Notes under the pieces: generated by a model
What the model saw: only the letters and a program-made list of their open reading frames with translations
Databases searched by the model: none
What the model was told of the DNA's origin: nothing
NCBI GenBank assembly: GCA_965222575.1
Contig: OZ244958.1
Location: forward strand, 352,001 to 416,000
DNA: 64,000 nucleotides
Source: Alphaproteobacteria bacterium
Lineage (GTDB): Bacteria > Pseudomonadota > Alphaproteobacteria > G965222575
Direction: 5' to 3'
Translations under genes and position numbers: made by a program
Part shown: positions 34,324 to 63,266 of the stretch, piece after piece
Layout: the number at the start of each line of letters is the position of its first letter
How positions within the stretch are numbered: the stretch's first letter is position 1

Positions 34324-35094
34324 ATGTTTTCCGCCGTCCTATCTCCCGCGAAATCCTTCAACTTTTCACCCCACCCCTCTTCCCACCAATACACCATTCC
34401 ACCCTTTCTCTCTAAAGCCGATGCCCTCGCCCAATCTCTCGCCTCCCTACCCGCCAAAGAACTCCAAACCTTAATGAAAATCTCTCCAGCCCTAAGCCAA
34501 CTCAATCAAAACCGCTTCTCCTCCTTTAAGCCAAACTGCACAACACCAATTCCCCACCAAAGTCAACAAGCCATTTTTACCTTCTCAGGAGATACCTACC
34601 GCACCCTCAACCCACGCTCCTTCACCCCACGCCAACAACAACAAGCCCAAAAACAACTCACCATCCTATCCGGTCTCTACGGATGCCTGCGTCCCCTAGA
34701 CTGCATACAACCCCATCGCTTGGAAATGAGCACACGCTTCCAACAAAATGCGCCTATGTCCTCAGTCTGGCAAGACATTATCACCCCTTGGCTCAATGAA
34801 AGACTAAAAACAAGCCTAGCACTCTTAATACTCGCATCAAAAGAATACAGAAAAGCCCTCAAAAAAGAAAACATTAACAAGCCCGTCATCACCATAGACT
34901 TCCTAGTAGACAAAGGACACCAAGGACTCAAAACCATCGGCGTCATCGCAAAAAAAGCCCGCGGTCTGTTCGCCCGCTTCATTGTTCAGGAAAATCCCTC
35001 TTCAATAAAAGCCTTACAACAATTTAAGACCGAAGGATGGAGGTTTAACGCCTCCCTTACCACCCCCGAATCCCTAGTCTTCGTTCGGTACTAA
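34324..35094 (+). CDS. yaaA: YaaA/UPF0246 peroxide stress protein
   Basis: LSPAKS, ILSGLYGCLRPLD...HRLEM, AKKARG. Confidence 0.9.
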   Translation: MFSAVLSPAKSFNFSPHPSSHQYTIPPFLSKADALAQSLASLPAKELQTLMKISPALSQLNQNRFSSFKPNCTTPIPHQSQQAIFTFSGDTYRTLNPRSFTPRQQQQAQKQLTILSGLYGCLRPLDCIQPHRLEMSTRFQQNAPMSSVWQDIITPWLNERLKTSLALLILASKEYRKALKKENINKPVITIDFLVDKGHQGLKTIGVIAKKARGLFARFIVQENPSSIKALQQFKTEGWRFNASLTTPESLVFVRY

Positions 35095-35909
35095 AGCGAA
35101 ATCGAGCAATACTCCTTCGGCACAAAAATATCCACAGCCCCCAAGGGCATTGCCCCTAAGGGCGTTATTGGCAACGGAAGAGAAAGTACAAATCGCCCCC
35201 CCAAAGGACTAGTAATATCAACGGTATCCGTAAACACAATGCTATCCGCACCTTCTTCAACATCCTTCCAAGAGAGATCAGCATCCGCTACGAGTTTGTC
35301 ACTGTTATTCCCTTGTGAGAAGGTCACAGAAGCAGGAGACGTGCCAAGCGGCGTCTGTCCATTGAAGAGTACCGCATAGGCAATAGGCTTTCTTTTAGGA
35401 TAAACATTGTGAACAAGATACTCCAAGAGAAAGGCAGCAGTTTCAGGAGGCGTTGAAGAAAGCCCAATAGTCAGACTTTCTCTCGGAATAAGATAAAACT
35501 GCCCATTTTGGGGAGATTGGGCACTAACAAGAGGCTTGGAACAAAGGGGACGCCTGTTTTCATCAGCTACCACAAGATAAGCAATCTCATCCCACCCCGC
35601 CGTGGCATCTTGAATTGGTCCAAAACGGATATCATTGAGATTGGTGACATAAGCCTGTATCCTTCCGAAATGCCCCCACCCCTTTTGCTCATAGCGGACT
35701 TTTGAGAAGTTGATGCGTTGAGGCTGATAGTCCCCTTCACTGGAAAAAGCCCTACTTGCAACAGCGTCATCGCTAGACAAGTCTGTCACTGTAAGCGCGG
35801 GCTCTGTTTTTAACAGATGGGCATAGCACGCTAAAGGGGCTTGCTCCGCAATGTTGCCTTGATTACAGATCGTTAAGAGCTGGTCGCGAATCGTATTGAA
35901 AAAATTCAT
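35091..35909 (-). CDS. Hypothetical protein resembling a duplicated phage minor tail/tail-fibre module
   Basis: YQPQRINF...NDIRFGP..ATAGWDEIAYLVVAD...L...IP..SLTI resembles recalled phage tail proteins (YARQAVTF..NxxxITFPxATADWGTITHFAIFD..); a weaker second copy follows. Confidence 0.45.
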   Translation of the reverse strand: MNFFNTIRDQLLTICNQGNIAEQAPLACYAHLLKTEPALTVTDLSSDDAVASRAFSSEGDYQPQRINFSKVRYEQKGWGHFGRIQAYVTNLNDIRFGPIQDATAGWDEIAYLVVADENRRPLCSKPLVSAQSPQNGQFYLIPRESLTIGLSSTPPETAAFLLEYLVHNVYPKRKPIAYAVLFNGQTPLGTSPASVTFSQGNNSDKLVADADLSWKDVEEGADSIVFTDTVDITSPLGGRFVLSLPLPITPLGAMPLGAVDIFVPKEYCSISL

Positions 35910-36025
35910 ACCCTCCTCTTTAGGTAAGCCTCAGACCATCATAAGAAAGGAGGGGAAATCCATATTAGAGGCACTTAGAACCCTTTAGCACTACTCAAAT
36001 GAAAAGAGACCTAAAGGCCTAGAGA

Positions 36026-36375
36026 CCTTGGGGAACCCGTAAGCCGGATTCTGTTTACAATGGCTATTCCTCTAGCATCAGCCTTACAGCATGATGTCCT
36101 GCGACCTACCCGCCCTTTGCTGGAATAAAGCACTATAGGGTCCTTTGGTCTTGCTCCCGGTGGGGTTTACACTGCCTCTTTTGTTGCCAAACGAGCGGTG
36201 CGCTCTTACCGCACCATTTCACCATTGCCTAGAAACACAAAAACATGCCCTAGGCTGTTTGTTTTCTGTTGCACTTTCCCTGAGGTTCCCCTCGCCGGAC
36301 GTTAACCGGCACCGCTATTCCATGGAGTCCGGACTTTCCTCCAGATTGCTCTGGCAACCATCCAGTTTCCCAAGG
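36026..36375 (-). ncRNA. rnpB: RNase P RNA (type A)
   Basis: Reverse complement contains GAGGAAAGTCCGGACTCC, GAAAGTGCAACAGAAA, GGTAAGAGCGCACCG, ACAGAATCCGGCTTAC; terminal P1 helix CCTTGGG/CCCAAGG. Confidence 0.95.
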
Positions 36376-36509
36376 CCTCCCTTTACCCGTAACACAACAA
36401 ACAGGAAAACACAAGAGGAAGAGATGTTTTTAATTCACGCCCCTTATTCACTCACTGCTTGAAATTGTTGAGAAGGGCTAGCCCCTAAGGGGTTCCCCTA
36501 GCCAATCCC

Positions 36510-37244
36510 TTACGGATTATGAGGAATGGTTCCTCCTCTGTTTGTGTCGATATCATCTATACCATAGACAGTAATGCGCAGGGTGCCTAGTAATTTCGAG
36601 GCATCTTTAATATTATGCTTTGTTCTGTAAGCAAAAAACTTCACCGGGTCACTCACTGTTAACTTTCCATAAACTGTGATTGTCCTTGCGTCTCCAACAT
36701 TTCCCAAGGCGGGTGGGTAACTACCATGTTCAAATAGCAAATAGTTCACCTCTTTCTCAAGAGGCTTAAACACCTCCAGTGGAGCAATCTGATTCCTCCT
36801 ACTCCCAGTGGACTGCTTCAGAGTGCCCCTGCCGCTGGTTTTTTTTAAAGTTAACTCTAACGCCACTCCCGCCTCTTTCAAATTAAGAGACCCCTCAATA
36901 TATGAAACCTTTATAAATGCATAAGAGCTATAAGTTGTCGAAGTACCAAACCCCCCGAAAACTTCCACCTCCGGTGCAAAAGTGAATACCCCTACCTGTG
37001 CCCAGTTACCAACAGGAGTGGCATTCTCACATTCTGTGATTCCATTCTCGTCTAACGCACACTCAATATTTTCCCCTTGATTCAGTTGTATCGGGGTCAC
37101 AGTATAAGCCCCAAAGTTTAGGTGTGTATCTACTGTAATGTCAAGCGCCGCTGCTAAGAGGAGTTGCCCTCCTAAGAGGAAACCTCCTAGGAGGAAACCT
37201 CCTATGGCAAGGTAACTGATAGAGATTTTGAAAGTCTTTTTCAT
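36510..37244 (-). CDS. Secreted pilin/adhesin-like protein (DUF4402/SCPU-like), cassette copy 1
   Basis: Signal peptide, HLNFG, Cys pair, VYGKLTV; paralogous to 39703-40407 and 43663-44401. Fold assignment is tentative. Confidence 0.7.
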   Translation of the reverse strand: MKKTFKISISYLAIGGFLLGGFLLGGQLLLAAALDITVDTHLNFGAYTVTPIQLNQGENIECALDENGITECENATPVGNWAQVGVFTFAPEVEVFGGFGTSTTYSSYAFIKVSYIEGSLNLKEAGVALELTLKKTSGRGTLKQSTGSRRNQIAPLEVFKPLEKEVNYLLFEHGSYPPALGNVGDARTITVYGKLTVSDPVKFFAYRTKHNIKDASKLLGTLRITVYGIDDIDTNRGGTIPHNP

Positions 37245-37280
37245 TGTCTATAGGCTCCTTTGTTGATGTTGCCTATAGAC

Positions 37281-37451
37281 GGGTTGCCTATAGACGGGTT
37301 GCCTATATAATAGGACAATTCCAAGCCCCTTGTCAAGACCCCCTAGGGGGGGGAAATCCTACTCCCTACGGACTTTATTGGGGGGGGAAACCCCTCCGCA
37401 AGAGTTTACTTGGGGGCAAGCCCCTAGGGGCAACCCGTCTATAGGCAACCC
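37281..37451. repeat. Perfect 23-bp inverted repeat pair (37281-37303 / 37429-37451)
   Basis: GGGTTGCCTATAGACGGGTTGCC and GGCAACCCGTCTATAGGCAACCC are exact reverse complements. Confidence 0.9.
37307..37336 (-). promoter_or_regulatory. sigma70-like promoter of cassette 1 (TTGACA-18-TATTAT); same sequence upstream of cassette 3
   Basis: Reverse strand TTGACAaggggcttggaattgtccTATTAT; repeated at about 44441-44470. Confidence 0.65.
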
Positions 37452-37541
37452 CATGGCACTCATAAAAACTTCCTACTTGATATTCTCTCTTTTACAAGTA
37501 CTGTATAACAACAAAAGAAAATTCCTTACGCAAAGACCGGC

Positions 37542-38276
37542 ATGAGATTCCTCAGCACCTCACTTTTTGTACACCTGCTAGTGATTTGGCTCACCTACAA
37601 CGTTACCCCTACGCCCTTTGAGTTTCTACAGCAAAACATAGACCTCTCTTTCCTCCCCCTTCCCCCCCCGCCGCCGCTCCCACCAGAGAACCGACCACCG
37701 CCCCCGCCAGAAGAGCCTCCACCGCCCCCTGTTGAAGAAGAAGTGCATAGCCCTTCCATCTTGCCTGCACCGCGCCCGCCTATCAAAAAACCTTTAGGCC
37801 CGCCTCCCATTCCTAAAATCCAAGAAGTCAAAAAACCGCCCCCGCTAGAAGAACCGCCCCCTGTCAAAATTCGGACTTACTCCAAAATAGAAGACCTACT
37901 CAAAGAGACCAAGCCCCCGCCAAAGCCTACAAAAAAAATCCTCCTCCCGCAAAAACTCACAGAACAAGAAATTGTGTACTTAAAAACCCATATCCGCAAG
38001 TATTGGAAATGGCCTGAAAACATGCCTTTATCGGAACTGGAGGATGTGTATATTGTTGTCGCTTTTTCATTGAAAGAGACAGGATTATTTGCTACACTAC
38101 CCCGAGTCATAGAAAAAAGCTTTGTCTCAGAAAATCATCAGGGCTACTTGGAGGCTTTTGAACAAAGTGTCTTGCGTTCACTTTTAGGAGCCGCTCCTCT
38201 TCCAGTCCCTAGAAACAAATATACCTTATGGAAAAACATGGAATTAACCTTTTATCTACAAGAATTATTGCCATGA
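37542..38276 (+). CDS. tolA: TolA-like proline-rich membrane protein
   Basis: N-terminal TM helix, Pro-rich linker, TolA-like C-terminal domain; stop overlaps the tolB start. Confidence 0.7.
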   Translation: MRFLSTSLFVHLLVIWLTYNVTPTPFEFLQQNIDLSFLPLPPPPPLPPENRPPPPPEEPPPPPVEEEVHSPSILPAPRPPIKKPLGPPPIPKIQEVKKPPPLEEPPPVKIRTYSKIEDLLKETKPPPKPTKKILLPQKLTEQEIVYLKTHIRKYWKWPENMPLSELEDVYIVVAFSLKETGLFATLPRVIEKSFVSENHQGYLEAFEQSVLRSLLGAAPLPVPRNKYTLWKNMELTFYLQELLP

Positions 38277-39598
38277 TGGTGTGGTCTTCTTTTAAGAAAT
38301 GGCTGAAAGTCGGTTGTTATGCTCTGTTGTGCGTACACCTTCAGAGTGAAGGGGTTGTCCGTCTTCAGATTGGGTCGCCTTCGTTTTCGCCCTTCCCCAT
38401 AGGCATTGAGGATTTTCACGGAGAAGAAGAGGAGATGCGTACCATAGGGCGTGAGATATCGTCCATTGTCCGGGGGAATTTATTAAAAACGGGCTTTTTT
38501 CACCACCCCCCTCTTGAGCAGGCAGAGTCCTCCTTACAGATACCGGATTATGCTCTTTTAGAGGAGAAGGGGTTTCAGGTTCTCGCCACAGGAACAGTCA
38601 CACAAGCCGCCGGCTCAGAGATAATTGTTCTCTTTCGGCTTTGGGACATTTTTTCCAAGAGTCAACTCAAGGCTTATCGTTTTAAGGGCACTACGCGACT
38701 GGTAGCTCATAGAATATCAGATATGATCTATGAAGAGTTAACAGGACTAAAGGGGGATTTTTCCACCACAATCGCCTTTATAGCCGAAACGAAAAAAGCA
38801 AAACGCACAATCAAACGCCTAGCCCTTATGGACCAAGATGGTCATAACATACGGTACTTAACCGATGGGAGCTTCTTAGTCCTAACACCGCAATTCGCCC
38901 CCAATGGATATCTTTTGTCCTATTTTTCCTACAAAAATAAAGTGCCCCAGGTCGTCATCTTGAACTTAGAAACGCGAAAAGAAACAGTGCTAGAAGCACA
39001 AGGTATGACCTTTGCTCCTCGATTCTCCCCCGATAGCAACCGCATCGCCTTCGCGTTGGAAAAAGAAGGAAACTCTGACCTGTATTTGACCTCACTAGAC
39101 ACAGGCAAGCAGCACCGCCTCACCCGCCACTTCGGAATCGATACCTCCCCAAGCTTTAACCCAAGCGGCGAATACTTGGTCTTCAATTCCGACCGCAGTG
39201 GCGCTCCGCAGCTCTACGTCATGCACATAAAAGAAGGAAGAAGCAAAAGAATTACCTTTCGTCAAGGACACTATCTCGCACCCACTTGGTCTCCACGCGG
39301 CGACTTAATCGCCTTCACAAAACGAAAGGAGGGTGCCTTCCACTTAGGCGTTATGAGGCCAGATGGCACAGGAGAAAGACTCCTAACTTCAGGACACCTA
39401 GATGATACTCCTACCTTTTCCCCTAATGGACAGGTCTTGCTCTTCAGTCGCCTAGTGGGGAAAAGCTATCACCTGTTTTCCATAGACATTTCCGGACGCT
39501 TCTTACGCAAACACACCCTCCCCCATGAAGCCTCTGACCCCACTTGGTCTCCACGAAAAGTTGGCACTTCTCCATCCTCCTCTAGGGGGAACCCCTAG
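38273..39598 (+). CDS. tolB: Tol-Pal beta-propeller TolB
   Basis: AHRISDMIYEELTG, LALMDQDG, repeated PxFSPDG/PTWSP. Confidence 0.93.
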   Translation: MMVWSSFKKWLKVGCYALLCVHLQSEGVVRLQIGSPSFSPFPIGIEDFHGEEEEMRTIGREISSIVRGNLLKTGFFHHPPLEQAESSLQIPDYALLEEKGFQVLATGTVTQAAGSEIIVLFRLWDIFSKSQLKAYRFKGTTRLVAHRISDMIYEELTGLKGDFSTTIAFIAETKKAKRTIKRLALMDQDGHNIRYLTDGSFLVLTPQFAPNGYLLSYFSYKNKVPQVVILNLETRKETVLEAQGMTFAPRFSPDSNRIAFALEKEGNSDLYLTSLDTGKQHRLTRHFGIDTSPSFNPSGEYLVFNSDRSGAPQLYVMHIKEGRSKRITFRQGHYLAPTWSPRGDLIAFTKRKEGAFHLGVMRPDGTGERLLTSGHLDDTPTFSPNGQVLLFSRLVGKSYHLFSIDISGRFLRKHTLPHEASDPTWSPRKVGTSPSSSRGNP

Positions 39599-39666
39599 GG
39601 GCTAGGGGGCTAGCCCCCCCCTAAAGGTCAAGAAAGTCCCCCACGCACCCTAAGTGTGCTTAAAAA

Positions 39667-39705
39667 CTTGAAGCTTGAAGCTTGTCGCTTGAAGCTTGTC
39701 GCTTA
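39667..39705. repeat. Short 14-bp tandem repeat (GCTTGAAGCTTGTC) abutting the stop codon of cassette 2
   Basis: cttgaagcttgaagcttgtcgcttgaagcttgtcgctta. Confidence 0.8.
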
Positions 39706-40407
39706 ATCGGTTGATGGAAATAAGTCCTTATGCTCACTATTAACCTCAAAAGCCAATGTGCCTAGTAATTTCGAGGCATCTTTAATATTATGCTTTGTTC
39801 TGTAAGCAAAAAACTTCAACGGGTCACTCACTATTAACTTCCCATAAACTTTGATTGTCTTTGGGGCGCTAGCGAGGATTGCACTTCTGTATACAAAACT
39901 ACCATCGATATACGCTAAATATGCCACCGGTGACTCAAGGGGCTTAAACACCGCCAGTGTAGTGTTAGTAGTCCCTCCAGAAAACAACGTATACAGCCCG
40001 CGCGTTGCATAAAAATGTAACTCTAACTCCACCCCTGCCTCTTTCAAATTAACAGACCCCTCAATATACGAAACCTTCATATATACAGTCTGCACCCGAT
40101 AGTCGGTGGGGTAAAGTCTTATAGAATCCGGCGAAATAGTGAATTCCCCTACCTGTGCCCAATCCCCGTAAGGAGTGGCATTCTTACATTCTGTGGTGTT
40201 GGCGTCATCACGCTTTAAGTCACACTCAATATTTTCCCCTTGATTGAGTTGTATTGGGGTCACAGTATAAGCCCCAAAGTTTAGGTGTGAAACTACGGCA
40301 ATGTCAGGCTCCACTGCTAAGAGGAGTTGCCCTCCTAAGAGGAAACCTCCTAGGAGGAAACCTCCTATGGCAAGGTAACTGATAGAGATTTTGAAAGTCT
40401 TTTTCAT
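39703..40407 (-). CDS. Secreted pilin/adhesin-like protein, cassette copy 2
   Basis: Signal peptide identical to copy 1; same conserved blocks; divergent intervening segments. Confidence 0.7.
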   Translation of the reverse strand: MKKTFKISISYLAIGGFLLGGFLLGGQLLLAVEPDIAVVSHLNFGAYTVTPIQLNQGENIECDLKRDDANTTECKNATPYGDWAQVGEFTISPDSIRLYPTDYRVQTVYMKVSYIEGSVNLKEAGVELELHFYATRGLYTLFSGGTTNTTLAVFKPLESPVAYLAYIDGSFVYRSAILASAPKTIKVYGKLIVSDPLKFFAYRTKHNIKDASKLLGTLAFEVNSEHKDLFPSTD

Positions 40408-40718
40408 TGTCTATAGGCTCCTTTGTTGATGTTGCCTATAGACGGGTTGCCTATAGACGGGTTGCCTATACGGGTTGGACAATTCCAAGCCCCTTGTCAA
40501 GACCCCCTAGGGGGGGAAAAAACCCTAGGGGGCCTATAGAAAACCCTAGGGGGCTAGCCCCTCCGCAAGAGTTTACTTGGGGGCTAGCCCCTAGGGGCAA
40601 CCCCCTAGGGAGAACCCCCCCCTACACCAACTTCAGAAAGCTCAATCACAAGAGGAAGAGTCCTTGAGTAGAGACAGTAAGTTTGTTAAAGTCTTTTAAG
40701 GGAAGACTTTCTGTTATG

Positions 40719-41432
40719 ATGGCTGGTCATTCAAAATTTAAGAACATTATGCACCGTAAGGGGGCACAAGATGCGAAACGCGGAAAGGCGTTTGCGCGTA
40801 CTGTACGCAACATTACCATAGCCGCACGCTCAAACCCAGACCCCAATACTAATGCCGCCTTGCGAACAGCTATCAGTGTTGCGAAAACGCTCAACATGCC
40901 AAAGGACAATATAGAAAAGGCTATTATGAGTGCTACGCTGAAAGAGAGTCAGGATTTAGAGTCTGTCATTTATGAGGGCTATGGCCCCGGGGGGGTGGCT
41001 TTGATGATAGAAGCTGTAACCGATAACAAAAACCGCACAGTGAGTATGGTGCGGTCTACACTTTCAAAATATGGAGGGACTCTAGGGGAAACAGGCAGTG
41101 TGCGGTTTTTATTTGACAGATTAGGGCTAATCACCTATCAAAAGCCTACCATAGAGGATTTTGAGACCTTTTTTGATACAGCCTGCCGCCAGGGGGCTTA
41201 TGATTGCTCAATGGAAGAACACACCATTGAGGTGCTGTCTTTGCCAGGGGATTTTCACTCCTTACTCACCTCCTTAGAGGAGACCTTCGGCTCTCCGCAA
41301 CAGGCTTCTTTAACATGGATTGCGAAAACCCAACTGCCTGCCCTAGACGAAAAACAGAGCCAACAACTGGAAAAAATCTTTGAAAAATTAGAGGAAAATA
41401 ACGATATACAAAATATTTGTGTTAATCTATAA
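40719..41432 (+). CDS. yebC: YebC/PmpR family protein
   Basis: MAGHSKFKNIMHRKGAQDAKRGK, YEGYGPGG, TDNKNRT. Confidence 0.95.
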   Translation: MAGHSKFKNIMHRKGAQDAKRGKAFARTVRNITIAARSNPDPNTNAALRTAISVAKTLNMPKDNIEKAIMSATLKESQDLESVIYEGYGPGGVALMIEAVTDNKNRTVSMVRSTLSKYGGTLGETGSVRFLFDRLGLITYQKPTIEDFETFFDTACRQGAYDCSMEEHTIEVLSLPGDFHSLLTSLEETFGSPQQASLTWIAKTQLPALDEKQSQQLEKIFEKLEENNDIQNICVNL

Positions 41433-41460
41433 CCCATTCATGAGGAGAACTAGACTAAAG

Positions 41461-42507
41461 ATGAGACGCCTTCTACAACTTTTTTGCATCCTAGCCATTG
41501 TGTGTACACTTGGAGAAAGCAGGGGCGGAGAGCTACATAGTGCCGTTAAGGACAATAAAATAGACGATGTACTCAACCTGCTCGCCAAGAATCATTCTAT
41601 CAACAGCCCCGACTATGAAGCCAATACCCCCTTACACCTAGCAATCCAAGAAGGGCATACCAAGCTTATCAAGCTCTTAATAGAGAAAGGGGCAGACATA
41701 TGGGCAAAAAATCAACAAGGCGCCCTACCCTTCCATTTAGCAGCCTACAAAGGCAACACAGAGATACTCAAGGATTTACTCAAAAGAGATTCCCGTCAAC
41801 TGCACACTCCTGATAACAACAATTATCAACCGCTACACTGGGCGACTTACGGTGCGCATCTTGAGACGATTTCCCTTCTAGTACAGGCGGGAAGCAATTT
41901 AGAGTCACAAGGGGGGTTTCCGTTGCACACACCCTTGCATACTGCCATTAGAAGCGGCACTTTGTCAGCCATAGAGCATTTGCTTAAGCTCGGGGCGAAT
42001 CTCAACGCTAAGACAAAAACTGGTTATACGCCTCTTTTGCTCGTACTGAACTTTCGCCACCCTAATATAGAGGACATCGTAACCCTCCTTCTCCAACAAG
42101 GTAGCTCTCTTGAGGCACGCAATCACTTTCAGATGAACGCCTTACATATGACTGCGAAAAGCGGGGATGAGCAGCTCAGTCTCTTACTGATAGCAAATGG
42201 AGCCGATTTAGAGCTTAAAGACTCCGCAGGCTATACCCCCCTACAATGGGCGGTGTATAGCAAAAACCTTGACCTCATCAAAACCCTCATTGAACAAGGG
42301 GCGGATATCAATACACAGGATAATGAAGGCAAAACACCCCTACAATGGGCTTCCTTTGATGGCAACACAGAGATAGTACAGGTATTGCTCAAAGCTGGAG
42401 CTTTGGTGCAACACAAAAACAAAAAGGATAAAAATGCCTTGGACATTGCCAAAGAACAAGAACATATTGAACTTGTTAACCTCCTTCAAGACGCCCTAAA
42501 ACAATGA
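41461..42507 (+). CDS. Ankyrin-repeat protein with N-terminal signal peptide
   Basis: About 9 repeats of TPLHxA...LLxxGAD; hydrophobic MRRLLQLFCILAIVC leader. Confidence 0.9.
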   Translation: MRRLLQLFCILAIVCTLGESRGGELHSAVKDNKIDDVLNLLAKNHSINSPDYEANTPLHLAIQEGHTKLIKLLIEKGADIWAKNQQGALPFHLAAYKGNTEILKDLLKRDSRQLHTPDNNNYQPLHWATYGAHLETISLLVQAGSNLESQGGFPLHTPLHTAIRSGTLSAIEHLLKLGANLNAKTKTGYTPLLLVLNFRHPNIEDIVTLLLQQGSSLEARNHFQMNALHMTAKSGDEQLSLLLIANGADLELKDSAGYTPLQWAVYSKNLDLIKTLIEQGADINTQDNEGKTPLQWASFDGNTEIVQVLLKAGALVQHKNKKDKNALDIAKEQEHIELVNLLQDALKQ

Positions 42508-42515
42508 GGCATTAG

Positions 42516-43013
42516 GTGAGAATCCTCGGCTTAGACCCCGGCTTAGAAAATGTAGGATGGTGTTTCATAGACCAAAAAGACAACACCATAAAAGGAGTTG
42601 CTATCGGTACTATTAAAACCAAAAGCACAACCCCAATAGGCACACGGCTTTTTCAGATTTTTGACGCCCTTGACAAGCTTGTCTCTGAGTATAAACCCTC
42701 AGTCGCCGCTGTGGAAACAAGCTTTGTCTCCCAATACCCACAATCTACCTTGAAACTAGGCATGGCAAGAGGGACTTGTCTAGCAGCCCTGTCTAAAAGT
42801 ACACTCCCCATTTACGAATACGCACCCCTCACTATCAAAAAAGCCATCTCAGGAAAAGGAAAAAGCTCAAAAGACACCGTCAAAAAAATGGTCTCAATTT
42901 TTTTGCCTGCCCTTACTATCAGTACCCACCACGCAAACGATGCCGCCGCCGCCGCCCTCTGCCATAGCCACCACCAACAAAGTAAACACCCCGCTTCAAG
43001 AACTTTACCATGA
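42516..43013 (+). CDS. ruvC: Holliday junction resolvase RuvC
   Basis: ILGLDPG, LKLGMARG, EYAPLTIKKAISGKG, HANDAAAAALCH. Confidence 0.95.
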   Translation: MRILGLDPGLENVGWCFIDQKDNTIKGVAIGTIKTKSTTPIGTRLFQIFDALDKLVSEYKPSVAAVETSFVSQYPQSTLKLGMARGTCLAALSKSTLPIYEYAPLTIKKAISGKGKSSKDTVKKMVSIFLPALTISTHHANDAAAAALCHSHHQQSKHPASRTLP

Positions 43014-43597
43014 TAGCGTCACTAGAAGGTACCCTACAATACAAAGGACTACAGCAGGCAGTGATTGCCTTACACGGCATAAGTATTGAAGTCCTGTGTG
43101 CCCCCAGTACTCTTGAAAAACTCGGAGAAGAAGGACAAGCAGTTAAGTTATATACCTATTTACATGTACGAGAAAATGCCCTGACTCTGTACGGCTTCTT
43201 GACAAAGAATGCCAAAGACTGCTTTTTACAGCTCCTCTCCATTCACGGCATAGGCCCCTCCTTAGGATTATCCATTATGGGGGCGCTAACCCCAGAGGCA
43301 CTAGCAAATGCTGTCCTTAAGAAAAATGCAAGCGCCTTTGAATCCATCAGCGGTGTTGGGAAAAAAATGGCAGAACGTCTTCTCTCAGAACTCTCAAGCC
43401 GTACCCTCTCCACCATTGACCCTATAACCGCCACCGCCCTCTCCACCGCCGAAGAAGACACAAAAACTGCCCTCTTGCGTCTCGGATTCAAAGTATCAGA
43501 AGCCACAAAAGCCATAGAAAAAGCACGTTGTGCAACAACGGACAATCACCAGCTGCTCATCACCGCTTTACAACTCTTAGGCAAGAAATCCTTTTGA
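43010..43597 (+). CDS. ruvA: Holliday junction branch migration protein RuvA
   Basis: MIASLEG, VREN..LYGF, HhH motifs IHGIGP and ISGVGKK. Confidence 0.95.
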   Translation: MIASLEGTLQYKGLQQAVIALHGISIEVLCAPSTLEKLGEEGQAVKLYTYLHVRENALTLYGFLTKNAKDCFLQLLSIHGIGPSLGLSIMGALTPEALANAVLKKNASAFESISGVGKKMAERLLSELSSRTLSTIDPITATALSTAEEDTKTALLRLGFKVSEATKAIEKARCATTDNHQLLITALQLLGKKSF

Positions 43598-43662
43598 GGG
43601 ACTATAAAGCCTCCGACTAACGCCTCCCGACTTCCCCCTAGGGGGTTCCCCTAGCCAATCCC

Positions 43663-44401
43663 TTACGGAGTAGCAAAGAGGGCATCATCATCAATATTAA
43701 CCTTAAACTCCAATGTGCCTAGTAATTGCGAGACATCTTTAATATTATGCTTTGTTCTGTAAGCAAAAAACTTCAACGGGTCACTCACTGTTAACTTTCC
43801 ATAAACTTTGATTATCTGTTTGTGATTCTCCCTAGCAGCAATCGAGGATAAGCTGCCTACAGCAAAATCAACAGTATATTTTAAACCTATCACCGTTGCT
43901 CCACTACTGGGCCTAAAAACAACGGGAGAGAATGCTCTGAAAGAGCCACTACCAGGCTGAGTATTAGTCCTCACAATTAGTGAGGTGTTGGCTGGTAGCG
44001 TGCCGCCATCAAACTTAAACTCTAACGCCACTCCCGCCTCTTCCAAATTAACAGACCTCGCTTTGTAATCAATCCTTATATTTATATCTCTCAGATACCA
44101 TACCACGATGTGGGCCCTCGAGAGTCCCCGGTGTAATTGTGAATTCCCCTACCTGTGCAAAAGACCCGTAAGGAGTGGCATTCTCACATTCTGTGATTCC
44201 ACCTTCCTTTAAGTCACAGACAACACTCTCCCCTTGATTGAGTTGTATCGGGGTCACAGTATAAGCCCCAAAGTTTAGGTGTGTATCTACTGTAATGTCA
44301 GGTTGCACAGTATCCCCTGTCGTCGCCAAGAGCTGTCCGCCTTGAAGAACAGCCCCCACAACAACAATACTTAAGGATATCTTTTTGAAAGACTTCTTCA
44401 T
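43663..44401 (-). CDS. Secreted pilin/adhesin-like protein, cassette copy 3, split by a 1-nt frameshift at about 44128
   Basis: 44069-44401 holds the N-terminal constant block and 43663-44106 the C-terminal block; removing one G from CCGGGGAC joins them. Confidence 0.7.
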
Positions 44402-44522
44402 CTACAAGCTCCTGTAGTTATTTATAGACGGGTTGCCTATATAATAGGACAATTCCAAGCCCCTTGTCAAGACCCCCTAGGGGCAACCCCTTTGGGGGAA
44501 AAAGCCCTACTCCCTACGGACT

Positions 44523-44753
44523 TTATTGAAACCAGAGATAGTAATGACCAATCCAAGCCACAAAAGCGGACAAGAGGAGTGTAGCCAAAGAGGTCAGGAG
44601 GAGTTTCCATCCAAGAAGGGGTCTATTAGGCGCTCCTCTTTGTTGTCCTTCTATGGGCTTGCGGTCGTGGCCTTTTAAGCCAAAGGGAAGGGTGAGGAAA
44701 AAAATCAGCCACCATATCAGGGGAAAGCTTAGGGCAAAAATAAGCCAAAACAT
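44523..44753 (-). CDS. DUF1467 family membrane protein
   Basis: IWWLIFFLTLPFG...GAPNRPLL; downstream of rnj as in alphaproteobacteria. Confidence 0.8.
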   Translation of the reverse strand: MFWLIFALSFPLIWWLIFFLTLPFGLKGHDRKPIEGQQRGAPNRPLLGWKLLLTSLATLLLSAFVAWIGHYYLWFQ

Positions 44754-44771
44754 TATTGTAAAGCCTACCGC

Positions 44772-46445
44772 TTAAAGCATCACCACATTAGCAATAACCA
44801 GTGGCGCAGCGGGGGAATCCAACAATTTGATTAAGAGACTGGTGGCTTTTTTTTCGGCTTTGCGGGTGATTTCTTCTTCACTTAGAGACTGAACAGAGCG
44901 GGGGAATTGTTTTTCCAGCGCCCCTGCTATTTTCTCCAGAATGTCATCGGAGAGCAGGATGCCTTTTTCCGTCATGGTAAGACCGCGCGATAAGTAGCCT
45001 TCTTCATTAAAAACGAGGGTGATAATCAAAGACCCCGCTGCCCCCATAATAGAGCGTTGTCTAAAACAGGGGTCATCAATTGGTATCAAGTCGCCTGTGA
45101 TATCTAGGGCTTTAGGTCTGAGGGGAATGCTATGAAGAAGTTTAGGCGTCTCTGGGGCGAGTTGCCACAGCTGTCCATTACGGGCAGGTATCACTTGCTT
45201 AATGCCTTGTGCTTTCGCAAATTGTTCGTGGTAGGCGAGGTGTTGACTTTCTCCATGAAGAGGAATGAGCAGGTGAGGATTGAGCCACTGGTACATTTTC
45301 TTTAGTTCCTGTTGCCCCGCGTGTCCTGAGGCGTGGATGGTGAGGTCGTCTGCGCTTATCACTTCTACTCCTGCTTCCACGAGGAGATTCACAATACGGG
45401 CTATGGACTTTTCGTTACCGGGAATCTTCTTAGCGGAAAACAAGACCACATCTCCTGCTTCTAGTGTCACTTGGGGGTGTCTCTGGTGGGCAATCTTGTC
45501 CATAGCGCTCATCTTTTCCCCTTGTGAACCTGTACACAGAAATAGCTGTTCCCCAATAGGCAAAGAGGCTCCTTCCTGAGGAGAGAGAAAGTCTTCCGCC
45601 CGAAGATAGCCACAACGCTTTGCCACTTCTAAAAACCTTTTCAAAGACCGCCCCACGAGAATGACTTGTCTGTTGGTGGCCTTTGCAACTTCGAGAACTG
45701 TTTTAATACGGCTAATCTGTGAGGAAAAGGTTGTCACAACAATGCGTCTTTTTTGTTGACCTATCACTGTCTTTAGGGTCTCTTCCACTGTCTTTTCCTG
45801 ACAAACAGGCGTCTTCACCATCACATTGGTGGAATCACAGCCAAAGACTAAGACTCCTTCCTTCCCTACGGACTCAAAGAGCTTCTCATCATAAACACTA
45901 TCTTTCAGTAAGGAAGTATTATCCAATGTCCAGTCTCCGCTATGCACAATGGTCCCTAGGGGCGTTGTAATTTTCACCATACGCGACTGTGGAATAGAGT
46001 GCGTAATTGGCAACAAAGACACCTCAAAAACTCCAGCTTTAACAGATTGCGTGTCCTCTAAAACAGAGACAGGAATCAGGGGCTTTTTCCCTTTTCGAAA
46101 TTTTCCTTCCTCTTTCAGGCGCACGTCAAGAAACGCGCGCGCAAACGGCGTCGCATACACAGGACACCCCAGCTTCTCATAGAGCATATGCACAGCCCCA
46201 ATATGGTCTTCATGGGCATGGGTAATAACAAGCCCCACAAGGTCTTCACGACGCTTTTCAATCCACTCAATATCCGGCACAAGAATATCAACGCCCGGGA
46301 CATCTCCTCCGGTGAACCCAATCCCAAGGTCTACCATGAGCCATTGTTCTTTCTCTCCTTCGCAATAGCCGTATAAACTGAGATTCAGTCCGATTTTTCC
46401 GCACCCGCCTAAGGGTAAAAATTTTAACTCTCCTTGCTCTGTCAT
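44772..46445 (-). CDS. rnj: Ribonuclease J
   Basis: PLGGCGKIGLN, THAHEDHIGA, TGSQGE, HASGHA. Confidence 0.95.
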   Translation of the reverse strand: MTEQGELKFLPLGGCGKIGLNLSLYGYCEGEKEQWLMVDLGIGFTGGDVPGVDILVPDIEWIEKRREDLVGLVITHAHEDHIGAVHMLYEKLGCPVYATPFARAFLDVRLKEEGKFRKGKKPLIPVSVLEDTQSVKAGVFEVSLLPITHSIPQSRMVKITTPLGTIVHSGDWTLDNTSLLKDSVYDEKLFESVGKEGVLVFGCDSTNVMVKTPVCQEKTVEETLKTVIGQQKRRIVVTTFSSQISRIKTVLEVAKATNRQVILVGRSLKRFLEVAKRCGYLRAEDFLSPQEGASLPIGEQLFLCTGSQGEKMSAMDKIAHQRHPQVTLEAGDVVLFSAKKIPGNEKSIARIVNLLVEAGVEVISADDLTIHASGHAGQQELKKMYQWLNPHLLIPLHGESQHLAYHEQFAKAQGIKQVIPARNGQLWQLAPETPKLLHSIPLRPKALDITGDLIPIDDPCFRQRSIMGAAGSLIITLVFNEEGYLSRGLTMTEKGILLSDDILEKIAGALEKQFPRSVQSLSEEEITRKAEKKATSLLIKLLDSPAAPLVIANVVML

Positions 46446-49523: not shown

Positions 49524-50167
49524 CCCCCAATAAGCCGCAACCCCTTAACCACAAGAACTTAAGGGGAATGCCTAACAAAGAAAGGGGGGAATGTGAAGGC
49601 GGCGGTATGCCTCCTGACATGGGTGGGATGATGTAACCCCCCAATAAGCCGCAACCCCCTTAACCACAAGAACCAAAGACAACCTCTTCTATGGGCGGTA
49701 TGGGCGGCGGTATGCCCTCCTGACAGGGGGGGATGATGTAACCCCCCAATAAGCCGCAACCCCCTTAACCACAAGAACCAAAGACAACCTCTTCTATGGG
49801 CGGTATGGGCGGCGGTATGCCCTCCTGACATGGGGGGGATGATGTAACCCCCCAATAAGCCGCAACCCCTTAACCACAAGAACTTAAGGGGAATGCCTAA
49901 CAAAGAAAGGGGGGAATCCCCTGTGCCTAGTCGCCAAGCGGCAGTATACTTAAAAGGGGCGTTTCCCTTTAAGAGAACCCATGTCTACAAAGTCACCTTA
50001 AGGATATCTCTTTGGTCGTCTCTTGCCTTATAGAACTTTAAGACGCCCTGCTGCTTGTTAAGAAAAAAAACCCGCACATCTCCCCACTAGCATAGACTTA
50101 AAGGAATAGTAATCTTGTTCGTTTAGAGTGACACCCATAACAAAACCTACAACCCTAACCCTCCTTC

Positions 50168-52974: not shown

Positions 52975-53826
52975 ATGAAATTTTTACGATATGGTGCTAA
53001 GGGAAAAGAGCAACCGGGCGTAGTAGACCGAAAAGGGAACATCAGGGATTTAAGCGCTTATCTTGCGAATATTACCCCGAACACACTGGAAGAACTCTTA
53101 GCATTAGACATTCCTCAGGACTTACCCCTTGTGAAAAGCCCTGTGCGTATAGGCTCTTGCCTCTCTTGGGTAAAGAAAATCATCTGCATTGGCTTAAACT
53201 ATCACGACCACGCAACAGAGATGGGCTTTGAAAGCTTATCAGAACCTATGTGTTTCCTCAAATCCCCGTCATCTCTATGCGGCCCCTATGACGATATCCT
53301 CTTTCCACCTAATGCACAACAGATGGACTGGGAGGTGGAACTAGGCATTGTCATAGGCAAGAGCGGGTTATGCATACCGAAAAATCAAGCAATGAATTAT
53401 ATCGCAGGCTATTGTCTGATGAACGATATATCGGAAAGAATGATGCAAATACAAAGAGGAGGGCAATGGACAAAGGGAAAAAGCTTTGATACTTTTGGGC
53501 CTATGGGGCCATGGCTCGTAACAAAAGAGGAAATCCCTAACCCACACAATTTAGATATCACGCTATCAGTCAATGGTAAGACAATGCAAAACAGTCATAC
53601 CTCTAAGATGATTTTCACCATTCCTTATATTGTCCACTACTTAAGTCACTTTATGAGTCTGCATCCCGGAGATGTTATCAGTACAGGCTCCCCTTCAGGC
53701 TCTGGACGCGGACAGTCTCCCATACAATACTTAGCCCCGGGTGATATCGTACAACACAGTATTGAAGGACTTGGCGCCGGAAAACAAAAATGCGTGGCTT
53801 GGCACGACAACGCCCGCACCATATAA
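52975..53826 (+). CDS. Fumarylacetoacetate hydrolase family protein
   Basis: ICIGLNYHDH, MDWEVEL, NDISER, KGKSFDTFGP. Confidence 0.93.
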   Translation: MKFLRYGAKGKEQPGVVDRKGNIRDLSAYLANITPNTLEELLALDIPQDLPLVKSPVRIGSCLSWVKKIICIGLNYHDHATEMGFESLSEPMCFLKSPSSLCGPYDDILFPPNAQQMDWEVELGIVIGKSGLCIPKNQAMNYIAGYCLMNDISERMMQIQRGGQWTKGKSFDTFGPMGPWLVTKEEIPNPHNLDITLSVNGKTMQNSHTSKMIFTIPYIVHYLSHFMSLHPGDVISTGSPSGSGRGQSPIQYLAPGDIVQHSIEGLGAGKQKCVAWHDNARTI

Positions 53827-54105
53827 GACTGCTGAACTTATCCTACCACGCACCCTTTGAGAGTCATCCCTCATCATTTTGGGGCTAATCCCTCCAAGAC
53901 TGCTCTCACTTATCACCACGCACCCTTTGAGAGTCATCCCTCATCATTTTGGGGCTAATCCCTTCAAGACTGCTCTCACTTATCACCACGCACCCTTTGA
54001 GAGTCATCCCTCATCATTTTGGGGCTAATCCCTTCAAGACTGCTCTCACTTATCACGCACCCTTTGAGAGTCATCCCTCATCATTTTGGGCTAATCCCTT
54101 TAAGA
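53825..54105. repeat. About 70-bp tandem repeat, 4 copies, between convergent genes
   Basis: AAGACTGCTCTCACTTATCACCACGCACCCTTTGAGAGTCATCCCTCATCATTTTGGGGCTAATCCCTTC starting at 53825, 53896, 53966 and 54036. Confidence 0.93.
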
Positions 54106-54133
54106 TGCACTCCTACGGCTCCCCCGCTTTTTC

Positions 54134-61995: not shown

Positions 61996-63266
61996 GGAAC
62001 CCCCCCGCTACAGAGTAGCTTTCTCGCGCACCACGTCCTCATAACTATGTCCAATAAGTGGAAAGGTGATTCTAAGGAACCCCCCCCGCTACAGAGTAGC
62101 TTTGGCACCTTAATCCTCGGCACAGAAGAAGGATTATGCCTCAAAGAGGAGACTTTCACGCCCTCAGCAGTGCCATTTACCAAAAACACCTCTAAGGAAC
62201 CCCCCCCCGCTACAGAGTAGCTTTCTCGCGCACCACGTCCTCATGACTATGTCCAATAAGTGGAAAGGTGATTCTAAGGAACCCCCCCCGCTACAGAGTA
62301 GCTTTGGCACCTTAATCCTCGGCACAGAAGAAGGATTATGCCTCAAAGAGGAGACTTTCACGCCCTCAGCAGTGCCATTTACCAAAAACACCTCTAAGGA
62401 ACCCCCCCCGCTACAGAGTAGCTTTGGCACCTTAATCCTCGGCACAGAAGAAGGATTATGCCTCAAAGAGGAGACTTTCACGCCCTCAGCAGTGCCATTT
62501 ACCAAAAACACCTCTAAGGAACCCCCCCCCGCTACAGAGTAGCTTTGGCACCTTAATCCTCGGCACAGAAGAAGGATTATGCCTCAAAGAGGAGACTTTC
62601 ACGCCCTCAGCAGTGCCATTTACCAAAAACACCTCTAAGGAACCCCCCCCCGCTACAGAGTAGCTTTGGCACCTTAATCCTCGGCACAGAAGAAGGATTA
62701 TGCCTCAAAGAGGAGACTTTCACGCCCTCAGCAGTGCCATTTACCAAAAACACCTCTAAGGAACCCCCCCCCGCTACAGAGTAGCTTTGGCACCTTAATC
62801 CTCGGCACAGAAGAAGGATTATGCCTCAAAGAGGAGACTTTCACGCCCTCAGCAGTGCCATTTACCAAAAACACCTCTAAGGAACCCCCCCCGCTACAGA
62901 GTAGCTTTGGCACCTTAATCCTCGGCACAGAAGAAGGATTATGCCTCAAAGAGGAGACTTTCACGCCCTCAGCAGTGCCATTTACCAAAAACACCTCTAA
63001 GGAACCCCCCCCGCTACAGAGTAGCTTTGGCACCTTAATCCTCGGCACAGAAGAAGGATTATGCCTCAAAGAGGAGACTTTCACGCCCTCAGCAGTGCCA
63101 TTTACCAAAAACACCTCTAAGGAACCCCCCCCCGCTACAGAGTAGCTTTGGCACCTTAATCCTCGGCACAGAAGAAGGATTATGCCTCAAAGAGGAGACT
63201 TTCACGCCCTCAGCAGTGCCATTTACCAAAAACACCTCTAAGGAACCCCCCCCGCTACAGAGTAGT
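61991..63266. repeat. Repeat-spacer tandem array: 12 copies of a ~32-bp core separated by cheR-derived segments A (x2, ~48 bp) and B (x9, ~87 bp)
   Basis: Core TCTAAGGAA(C7-9)GCTACAGAGTAGCTTT; A resembles cheR 61817-61863 and B resembles cheR 61900-61990. Confidence 0.93.

Follow-up and report, generated by a model that had tools for sequence, protein, structure and literature searches.

Mosaic paralogues with a common tandem-repeat leader form a seven-locus family of secreted-protein genes in a 1.2-Mb alphaproteobacterial genome

A stretch of 64,000 nucleotides from an alphaproteobacterial genome (assembly GCA_965222575.1, contig OZ244958.1, positions 352,001 to 416,000; hereafter the window) carries three minus-strand copies of a gene for a secreted protein. 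A genome-wide search places this gene family at seven loci in the single-contig genome of 1,215,846 bp. The copies have exchanged short DNA tracts, about 40–160 nt long, by homologous recombination, and they combine a constant framework that is near-identical even at silent sites with four to five variable blocks that occur in differing combinations. The family is probably best understood as a lineage-restricted, multi-locus contingency family of the opa type, equipped with a leader repeat of the hmw type, and not as one expression site served by silent cassettes.

The first-pass annotation of the window had described three minus-strand paralogues in which constant stretches alternate with unalignable ones. 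DNA alignment confirmed this arrangement: invariant blocks encoding HLNFGAYTVTPIQLNQGE, NL.EAGV and VYGKL.VSDP.KFFAYRTKHNIKD alternate with stretches that cannot be aligned. Every pairing of copies named in that annotation also holds. Copies 1 and 2 share an exact tract of 157 nt, from -62 to +95, comprising leader and signal peptide; copies 1 and 3 have DITVDTH, GITECENATP and a 3' flank beginning GGGATTGGCTAGGGGAACCCC in common; and CDLK, PYG, GEFTI and DPLK are common to copies 2 and 3. A genome-wide count of copies, proposed in the same annotation, adds four loci beyond the window: one at 150 kb (A150), a tandem pair at 271–273 kb (C271 and B272) and one at 520 kb, the last being the only one of the seven on the plus strand. 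Further exact tracts link A150 with copy 1 (155 nt) and C271 with copy 3 (85 nt), and such tracts reach into the non-coding leader and flank. Sliding-window identity within one pair ranges from 15% to 100%; B272 and C271, for instance, are 100% identical over alignment columns 31–120 and 15% identical over columns 331–390.

Statistical tests show that this patchwork exceeds chance. The pairwise homoplasy index (PHI) test drew on 209 informative sites; at each of three window sizes (5, 10 and 20), 0 of 2000 permutations attained the observed value, and the result was 0 of 5000 when the variable blocks were removed and only well-aligned columns (84 informative sites) were kept. Congruent block trees were not seen: the maximum-likelihood trees of five segments disagree, and approximately unbiased (AU) tests reject foreign block trees, with the P5 data rejecting the P1 and P2 trees (p ≤ 1.7e-4), the P4 data rejecting P1 and P5 (p < 5e-4) and the P2 data rejecting P4 (p = 0.002). 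The proportion of synonymous differences (pS) is 0.09–0.17 in the constant blocks versus 0.5–0.6 in the variable blocks, the latter being near saturation, and in each block the non-synonymous proportion is about the same as the synonymous one. Selection on the protein alone would free the silent sites, yet in the constant blocks these have changed no more than replacement sites; the constant blocks have therefore been recently shared, a pattern that points to homogenisation at the DNA level and not to protein constraint alone. Altogether, PHI, the AU tests, sliding identity and the exact tracts show that the patchwork was produced by segmental recombination among the paralogues, which is how the first-pass annotation had supposed the family to be diversified.

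The genome encodes RecA, RuvC, RuvA and RuvB. It had been stated that the window holds neither a recombinase nor a reverse transcriptase; the second half of this statement stands, and the first needs amending, because the interval from copy 2 to copy 3 contains ruvC and ruvA. Both are general recombination genes and not a site-specific recombinase. A diversity-generating retroelement was considered and rejected, as a search for reverse transcriptases gave no RVT_1 match in the genome and the variable blocks also differ by insertions and deletions and at all four bases. As a side observation, it is copy 3, not ruvB, that follows ruvA (43010–43662), and ruvB lies at genome position 588997 with no cassette near it. 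A link between the cassettes and chromosome rearrangement was dismissed, given that ruvB adjoins no cassette.

Every one of the seven loci is full length and has a start codon, a signal peptide, a ribosome-binding site and a -35 element, and the loci follow one order: upstream palindromes, a promoter-like element, a 15-bp tandem repeat, the ribosome-binding site, the signal peptide and a 3' palindrome. The promoter-like element consists of TTGACA, an 18-nt spacer and TATTAT, a motif found seven times in the genome, each time at a family locus. Its -35 element is present at seven of seven loci and the full -35/-10 pair at six, copy 2 being without the -10 box. In a scan of positions 36300–44700, the two top promoter-like sites were those of copies 1 and 3. 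Upstream, palindromes of the CCCCTAGGGG type are similarly confined, with 19 of the 20 in the genome standing at family loci where composition predicts 0.67; the lone remaining one lies at genome position 348676. The 3' flanks are of two kinds, type 1 at five loci and type 2 at two. Downstream of the 150-kb copy, at genome positions 149740–150095, tandem units of about 100 bp contain the G+C-rich palindromes of the cassette flanks.

The leader repeat, with consensus unit TATAGGCAACCCGTC, starts at the predicted promoter's -10 box and ends 24–30 nt ahead of the ATG. Its unit count differs between loci, from 1 to about 22: there are about 22 units at the 272-kb locus, about 16 at the 150-kb locus (all with one variant base), about three in copies 1 and 2, and a single unit, whole or interrupted, at the other three loci. 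Counted as full 15-bp units, the arrays hold 15, 21, 2, 2, 1 and 1 at six loci, and the unit occurs nowhere else in the genome. The junction between units, GUCUAUAGGC, is self-complementary and is also complementary to a stretch just 3' of the ribosome-binding site. In predicted folds of the leader, the initiation region is held in a stem and the long arrays form strings of 10-bp unit-to-unit hairpins, the two longest having minimum free energies, computed in silico, of -115.5 and -157.0 kcal/mol. A second, in-frame repeat lies in the coding region of the signal peptide, where a 15-nt duplication (2.5 copies; 37168–37204 and 40331–40367) yields GGFLLGGFLL; copies 1 and 2 have it, as does the 150-kb copy, and the 271/272-kb pair is without it. 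This duplication keeps the frame, and no frame-switching coding repeat is present.

At copy 1, one and a half leader units stand inverted at 37430–37451 (plus strand), about 120 bp upstream of the promoter. The promoter is thereby bracketed by 22-bp inverted repeats in the manner of an invertible switch and, if inverted, would face a proline-rich open reading frame (ORF) and tolB. An invertible promoter was nevertheless rejected for the family, since the inverted repeat copy is present at one locus of seven and the three tyrosine recombinases of the genome are far from all loci.

The products are best explained as secreted proteins that are small (about 210 residues once the signal peptide is removed) and rich in beta structure. 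Six of the seven genes are intact and encode 234–255 residues, and the aligned proteins have a hydrophobic, signal-peptide-like N-terminus, a call read from the sequence itself, together with two invariant cysteines. AlphaFold2 gave a predicted local distance difference test score (pLDDT) of 58 for the full-length protein and of 67 for the mature protein, the latter model being mostly beta with about 80 in its core. In this better model, conservation averages 0.69 at strand and helix positions versus 0.57 in coil (Mann-Whitney p = 0.008), and the variable blocks map to hairpin tips and loops. The first-pass annotation had raised the question of whether the variable blocks are exposed loops. 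Their placement on tips and loops agrees with this and lends modest support to the view that the exposed parts vary; the model is of moderate quality, and Foldseek returned nothing for it at E ≤ 0.001.

In addition, the family is a lineage-restricted orphan and a new protein type. A Pfam scan gave nothing at E ≤ 1, the best Foldseek template modelling (TM) scores against the PDB were ≤0.35 for both models, and a profile search of PDB sequences produced one match at E = 1.1, which was taken as chance. A word-indexed search of 5.8 billion clusters recovered the seven proteins of this genome and nothing else. A profile search of 1.84 billion representatives recovered the genome's own proteins and two others, P0009 and P0010, both long and repetitive (P0009 consists of cadherin repeats), which were set aside as repeat-inflated. 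Family matches were found in none of 40 genomes of the same class, no relative appeared in a search of public genome contigs, and two back-translated motif scans of metagenome contigs yielded no family match. Two family protein motifs and the repeat unit on both strands had no match in the literature, supplementary files lying outside the scope of that search. The GroEL of this genome shares no more than 76% identity with its counterparts in other Alphaproteobacteria, and the nearest comparison genomes are related to it at class level only.

Several other explanations have to be weighed. The patchwork might be a relic of old paralogues without ongoing exchange, in which protein selection keeps the constant blocks and convergence, chance or misalignment does the rest. 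Poorly alignable variable blocks can indeed distort site-pattern tests, and a pN/pS ratio (pN being the non-synonymous proportion) near 1 points to selection in neither direction. Against this, silent sites in the constant blocks are conserved like replacement sites, the PHI signal persists without the variable blocks, exact tracts of 85–157 nt extend into non-coding leader and flank, and the AU tests reject a common tree, so that this account is very improbable. An assembly artefact of a repeated gene family can be given scarcely any credence either. Short-read contigs of three public runs break at each cassette, which means that short reads alone cannot phase the loci. The genome, however, is one 1.2-Mb contig, each copy has its own variable blocks and its own housekeeping flanks, the exact tracts (≤157 nt) are short relative to long reads, and contigs of two runs match the unique flanks with 0–5 differences per piece.

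Classical programmed antigenic variation, in which donors segmentally convert one expressed locus as in Anaplasma msp2/p44 or Neisseria pilE/pilS, was the layout favoured by the first-pass annotation. Conserved anchors do flank the variable blocks and the mosaic is proven; moreover, copy 2 without its -10 box and copy 3 with its frameshift are possibly non-expressed and could act as reservoirs. Such a system has a single expression site and about 100 silent functional pseudogenes in msp2/p44, as described in a passage of PMC11946796, whereas here all seven loci are full length with start codon, signal peptide and -35 motif. The genome contains no truncated or promoterless fragments: none of 384 blastn-short matches lies outside the seven loci, and the four tblastn matches that do all have E ≥ 0.12. 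Nor was any dedicated recombination element seen, and the msp2/pilE-pilS layout is unlikely. The same annotation had taken the product for a DUF4402/Csu-like subunit, and one possibility is that the proteins assemble into an archaic pilus (of the Csu/SCPU/DUF4402 type) or a comparable polymer, with the conserved N-terminal segment as donor strand. This identity is likewise unlikely, and it failed the hidden Markov model (HMM), profile-profile, fold and gene-context tests. Its leads are the neighbourhood in a protein language model, where DUF4402 takes 7 and SCPU 2 of the 30 places nearest to copy 1 (score about 0.91) and a second paralogue falls among SCPU, DUF4402, WxL and EcpA clusters at 0.86–0.90; an L-x-F-G motif after the signal peptide that DUF4402 proteins also possess; and 45 conserved N-terminal residues that remain unfolded in the monomer models. 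The language-model features shared number 133–163 of 256, under the 170 typical of true family members, however. The DUF4402 (PF14352) and SCPU (PF05229) models match nothing in the genome at E ≤ 10, and hhalign against 18 DUF4402 proteins gave a probability of 1.1% over 15 columns (18 of 22 DUF4402 matches were used, two wrong ORFs and one fused protein matched twice being left out). Foldseek, run on two models of moderate quality, found no match at E ≤ 0.001 and no pilin among the top matches. The usher search of the genome gave 0 matches, the one PapD_N match (E = 0.07) fails the cut-off for a chaperone, and housekeeping genes flank every locus.

If the family is a multi-locus contingency family, each locus would be a self-contained expression unit with a family-specific sigma-70-type promoter and a transcribed repeat leader. 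Exchange would proceed through the general RecA/RuvABC pathway, and the protein would be exposed to the host or to a competitor, with its hairpin tips and loops pressed to differ. The number of repeat units (1 to about 22) may set the output of each locus: the repeat junction would pair just 3' of the ribosome-binding site, and long arrays would form hairpins in series. The -10 box could also be lost when the repeat slips or recombines, as may have happened in copy 2. In its fullest form, this account would amount to a hitherto undescribed contingency system in a deep-branching, reduced-genome alphaproteobacterium, with seven autonomous loci for a secreted protein of new fold, in which short-tract conversion of four to five hypervariable hairpins or loops is coupled to a leader repeat that sets or switches output through initiation-masking RNA hairpins and loss of the -10 box. 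So extended, the account can be held only tentatively.

A number of points weigh against the multi-locus contingency reading. Promoter and leader are predictions, and the unit counts of the two long arrays hinge on correct assembly. The contigs of all three public runs over 35000–46000 are broken at every cassette, and their joints and clustered differences could stem from other paralogues that map onto the copies of the window. The run-length test (p ≤ 0.0006 for 13 of 21 pairs) was given little weight, since rate variation along the gene inflates it. As pN/pS is about 1 in every block and the variable blocks are saturated, the data do not establish positive selection. Neither AlphaFold2 run gave a confident model of the best-conserved part of the protein, its first 45 mature residues, and no export system other than Sec was identified in the genome. 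Ongoing, programmed variation is unproven.

The features of the three window copies are collected in Table 1. The copy 3 frameshift, the four further copies, the 15-bp leader repeat and the position of ruvC and ruvA between copies 2 and 3 had all escaped the first-pass annotation.

Table 1. Features of the three family copies within the window (positions counted from its first letter).
Feature	Position	Strand	Details
Copy 1 (W1) gene	36510-37244	minus	Intact, 244 aa, with signal peptide (P0001, 100% self-match); from ORF list and alignments
Copy 1 3' flank, type 1	36475-36509	minus	G+C-rich palindrome beginning GGGATTGGCTAGGGG; common to 5 of 7 loci
Copy 1 leader repeat	37268-37307	minus	15-bp unit, 2.7 copies, immediately 3' of the -10 box (Tandem Repeats Finder)
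Copy 1 promoter-like site	37307-37336	minus	TTGACA, 18-nt spacer, TATTAT; 11 of 12 matches
Copy 1 upstream block	37337-37460	minus	CCCCTAGGGG-type palindromes and one inverted leader-repeat copy near 37430-37451
Copy 2 (W2) gene	39703-40407	minus	Intact, 234 aa (P0004)
Copy 2 3' flank, type 2	39598-39702	minus	7-bp CTTGAAG repeats and palindromes; otherwise only at the 520-kb locus
Copy 2 leader repeat	40431-40477	minus	About 3 units, the first imperfect
Copy 2 promoter remnant	40478-40500	minus	-35 TTGACA kept; part of a repeat unit in place of TATTAT; no site found by scan
Copy 3 (W3) N-terminal half	44069-44401	minus	110 aa, terminates at the frameshift (P0008)
Copy 3 (W3) C-terminal half	43663-44106	minus	+1 frame (P0007)
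Copy 3 promoter-like site	44427-44470	minus	11 of 12 matches; one 15-bp unit follows
Copy 3 3' flank, type 1	43628-43662	minus	From motif map

Judged from these features, copy 1 is the window copy that appears fully competent. Copy 3 spans 43663–44401 overall and is split in two by the frameshift. A contig of run X1 (depth 49) is without three letters at 44104 and one at 44112, both inside the overlap of the two copy 3 frames, and this net loss of four letters would place the halves in one frame. The break may be specific to the strain or an error in the assembly; a mis-mapped paralogue may also account for the X1 contig.

Housekeeping genes flank all seven loci. Within the window, the neighbours of the cassettes are RNase P RNA, TolB, YebC, RuvC, RuvA, DUF1467, RNase J and one ankyrin-repeat protein. 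At the other loci, the flanking ORFs, read from their first residues only, appear to be lolCDE-type transporter genes, gyrB, trxB and dapB. The ankyrin-repeat protein (41419–42507, plus strand), located between yebC and ruvC, has 362 residues and a hydrophobic N-terminus, and it fits a host-associated lifestyle. A proline-rich ORF of 244 residues (37542–38276, plus strand) has no Pfam match and overlaps the start of tolB, a position that suggests a TolA-like protein. The genome is small and yet rich in repeats. Directly after groEL, a 105-bp tandem repeat (49598–49883; 2.7 copies, 97% matches) repeats the sequence of the Gly-Met-rich 3' end of that gene, and further long arrays are a 121-bp unit in 8.2 copies (99% matches) at 62273–63265, a 339-bp unit in 2.1 copies at 524–1235 and a 70-bp unit in 4.2 copies at 53825–54112.

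Research on variable families of surface or secreted proteins has concentrated on a few pathogens and has barely touched uncultured bacteria with reduced genomes. That a genome of only 1.2 Mb retains an orphan gene in seven copies, along with the elaborate control region common to them, suggests strong and changing selection by a host or a competitor, and the family looks like a means of varying a protein that meets the host. Furthermore, the 15-bp leader repeat, whose units pair with one another in the predicted folds, offers a simple candidate for RNA-level control that depends on the repeat. With its seven loci and clear division into constant and variable blocks, the family also constitutes a compact natural data set for the study of short-tract gene conversion.

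Among known systems, DUF4402/SCPU proteins resemble the family in size, signal peptide, beta-rich fold, an L-x-F-G motif near the mature N-terminus and language-model neighbourhood; they differ in that no significant HMM, profile-profile or fold match connects the two and the genome is without a chaperone or usher over the cut-off. In Wolbachia wsp, hypervariable regions lie between conserved ones and are shuffled by recombination, according to a passage of PMC2843615. Here too, a probably host-associated alphaproteobacterium has a putative surface protein with hypervariable regions shuffled between conserved ones. The proteins are unrelated, however, and wsp mosaics arise between strains at one locus, whereas those described here lie between paralogues in one genome. 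In the pilS layout, silent, truncated donors serve one expression site. Like msp2/p44 and pilE/pilS, the family has hypervariable segments set between conserved anchors, and its segments have recombined homologously in a genome proficient in RecA. It departs from both in that seven of seven loci are complete and fragments are absent, in contrast to one expression site with silent truncated donors.

The leader repeat finds its closest parallel in the hmw genes of Haemophilus influenzae, where a transcribed repeat in the 5' untranslated region forms a long hairpin and repeat number sets expression, as a passage of PMC12721329 relates. Like hmw1A and hmw2A, the family has a tandem repeat in the leader, between predicted promoter and start codon, that is predicted to form hairpins. 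The unit is 15 bp here and a heptamer (7 bp) in hmw, and the arrays are predicted to pair unit to unit and with the initiation region instead of with a G-rich arm.

The opa genes have an SV/HV1/HV2 layout and a CTCTT repeat. About 11 complete loci subject to phase variation are described in passages of PMC3745409 and PMC13183285, and the multi-locus layout also in a passage of PMC2265424. The protein described here is unrelated to Opa, with no Pfam match, no fold match at E ≤ 0.001 and no barrel-type aromatic C-terminal residue. Unlike the opa repeat, the repeat here has a 15-bp unit and lies in a non-coding leader, where it is unable to alter the frame of translation, and no switching has been seen in this family. 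In other respects the likeness to opa is broad. Complete genes are scattered on the chromosome, each with its own signal peptide and its own promoter (here a predicted one); a conserved framework contains discrete hypervariable regions, and mosaic alleles arise through recombination between loci. Moreover, a simple repeat near the 5' end varies in length from locus to locus, and some copies are out of frame.

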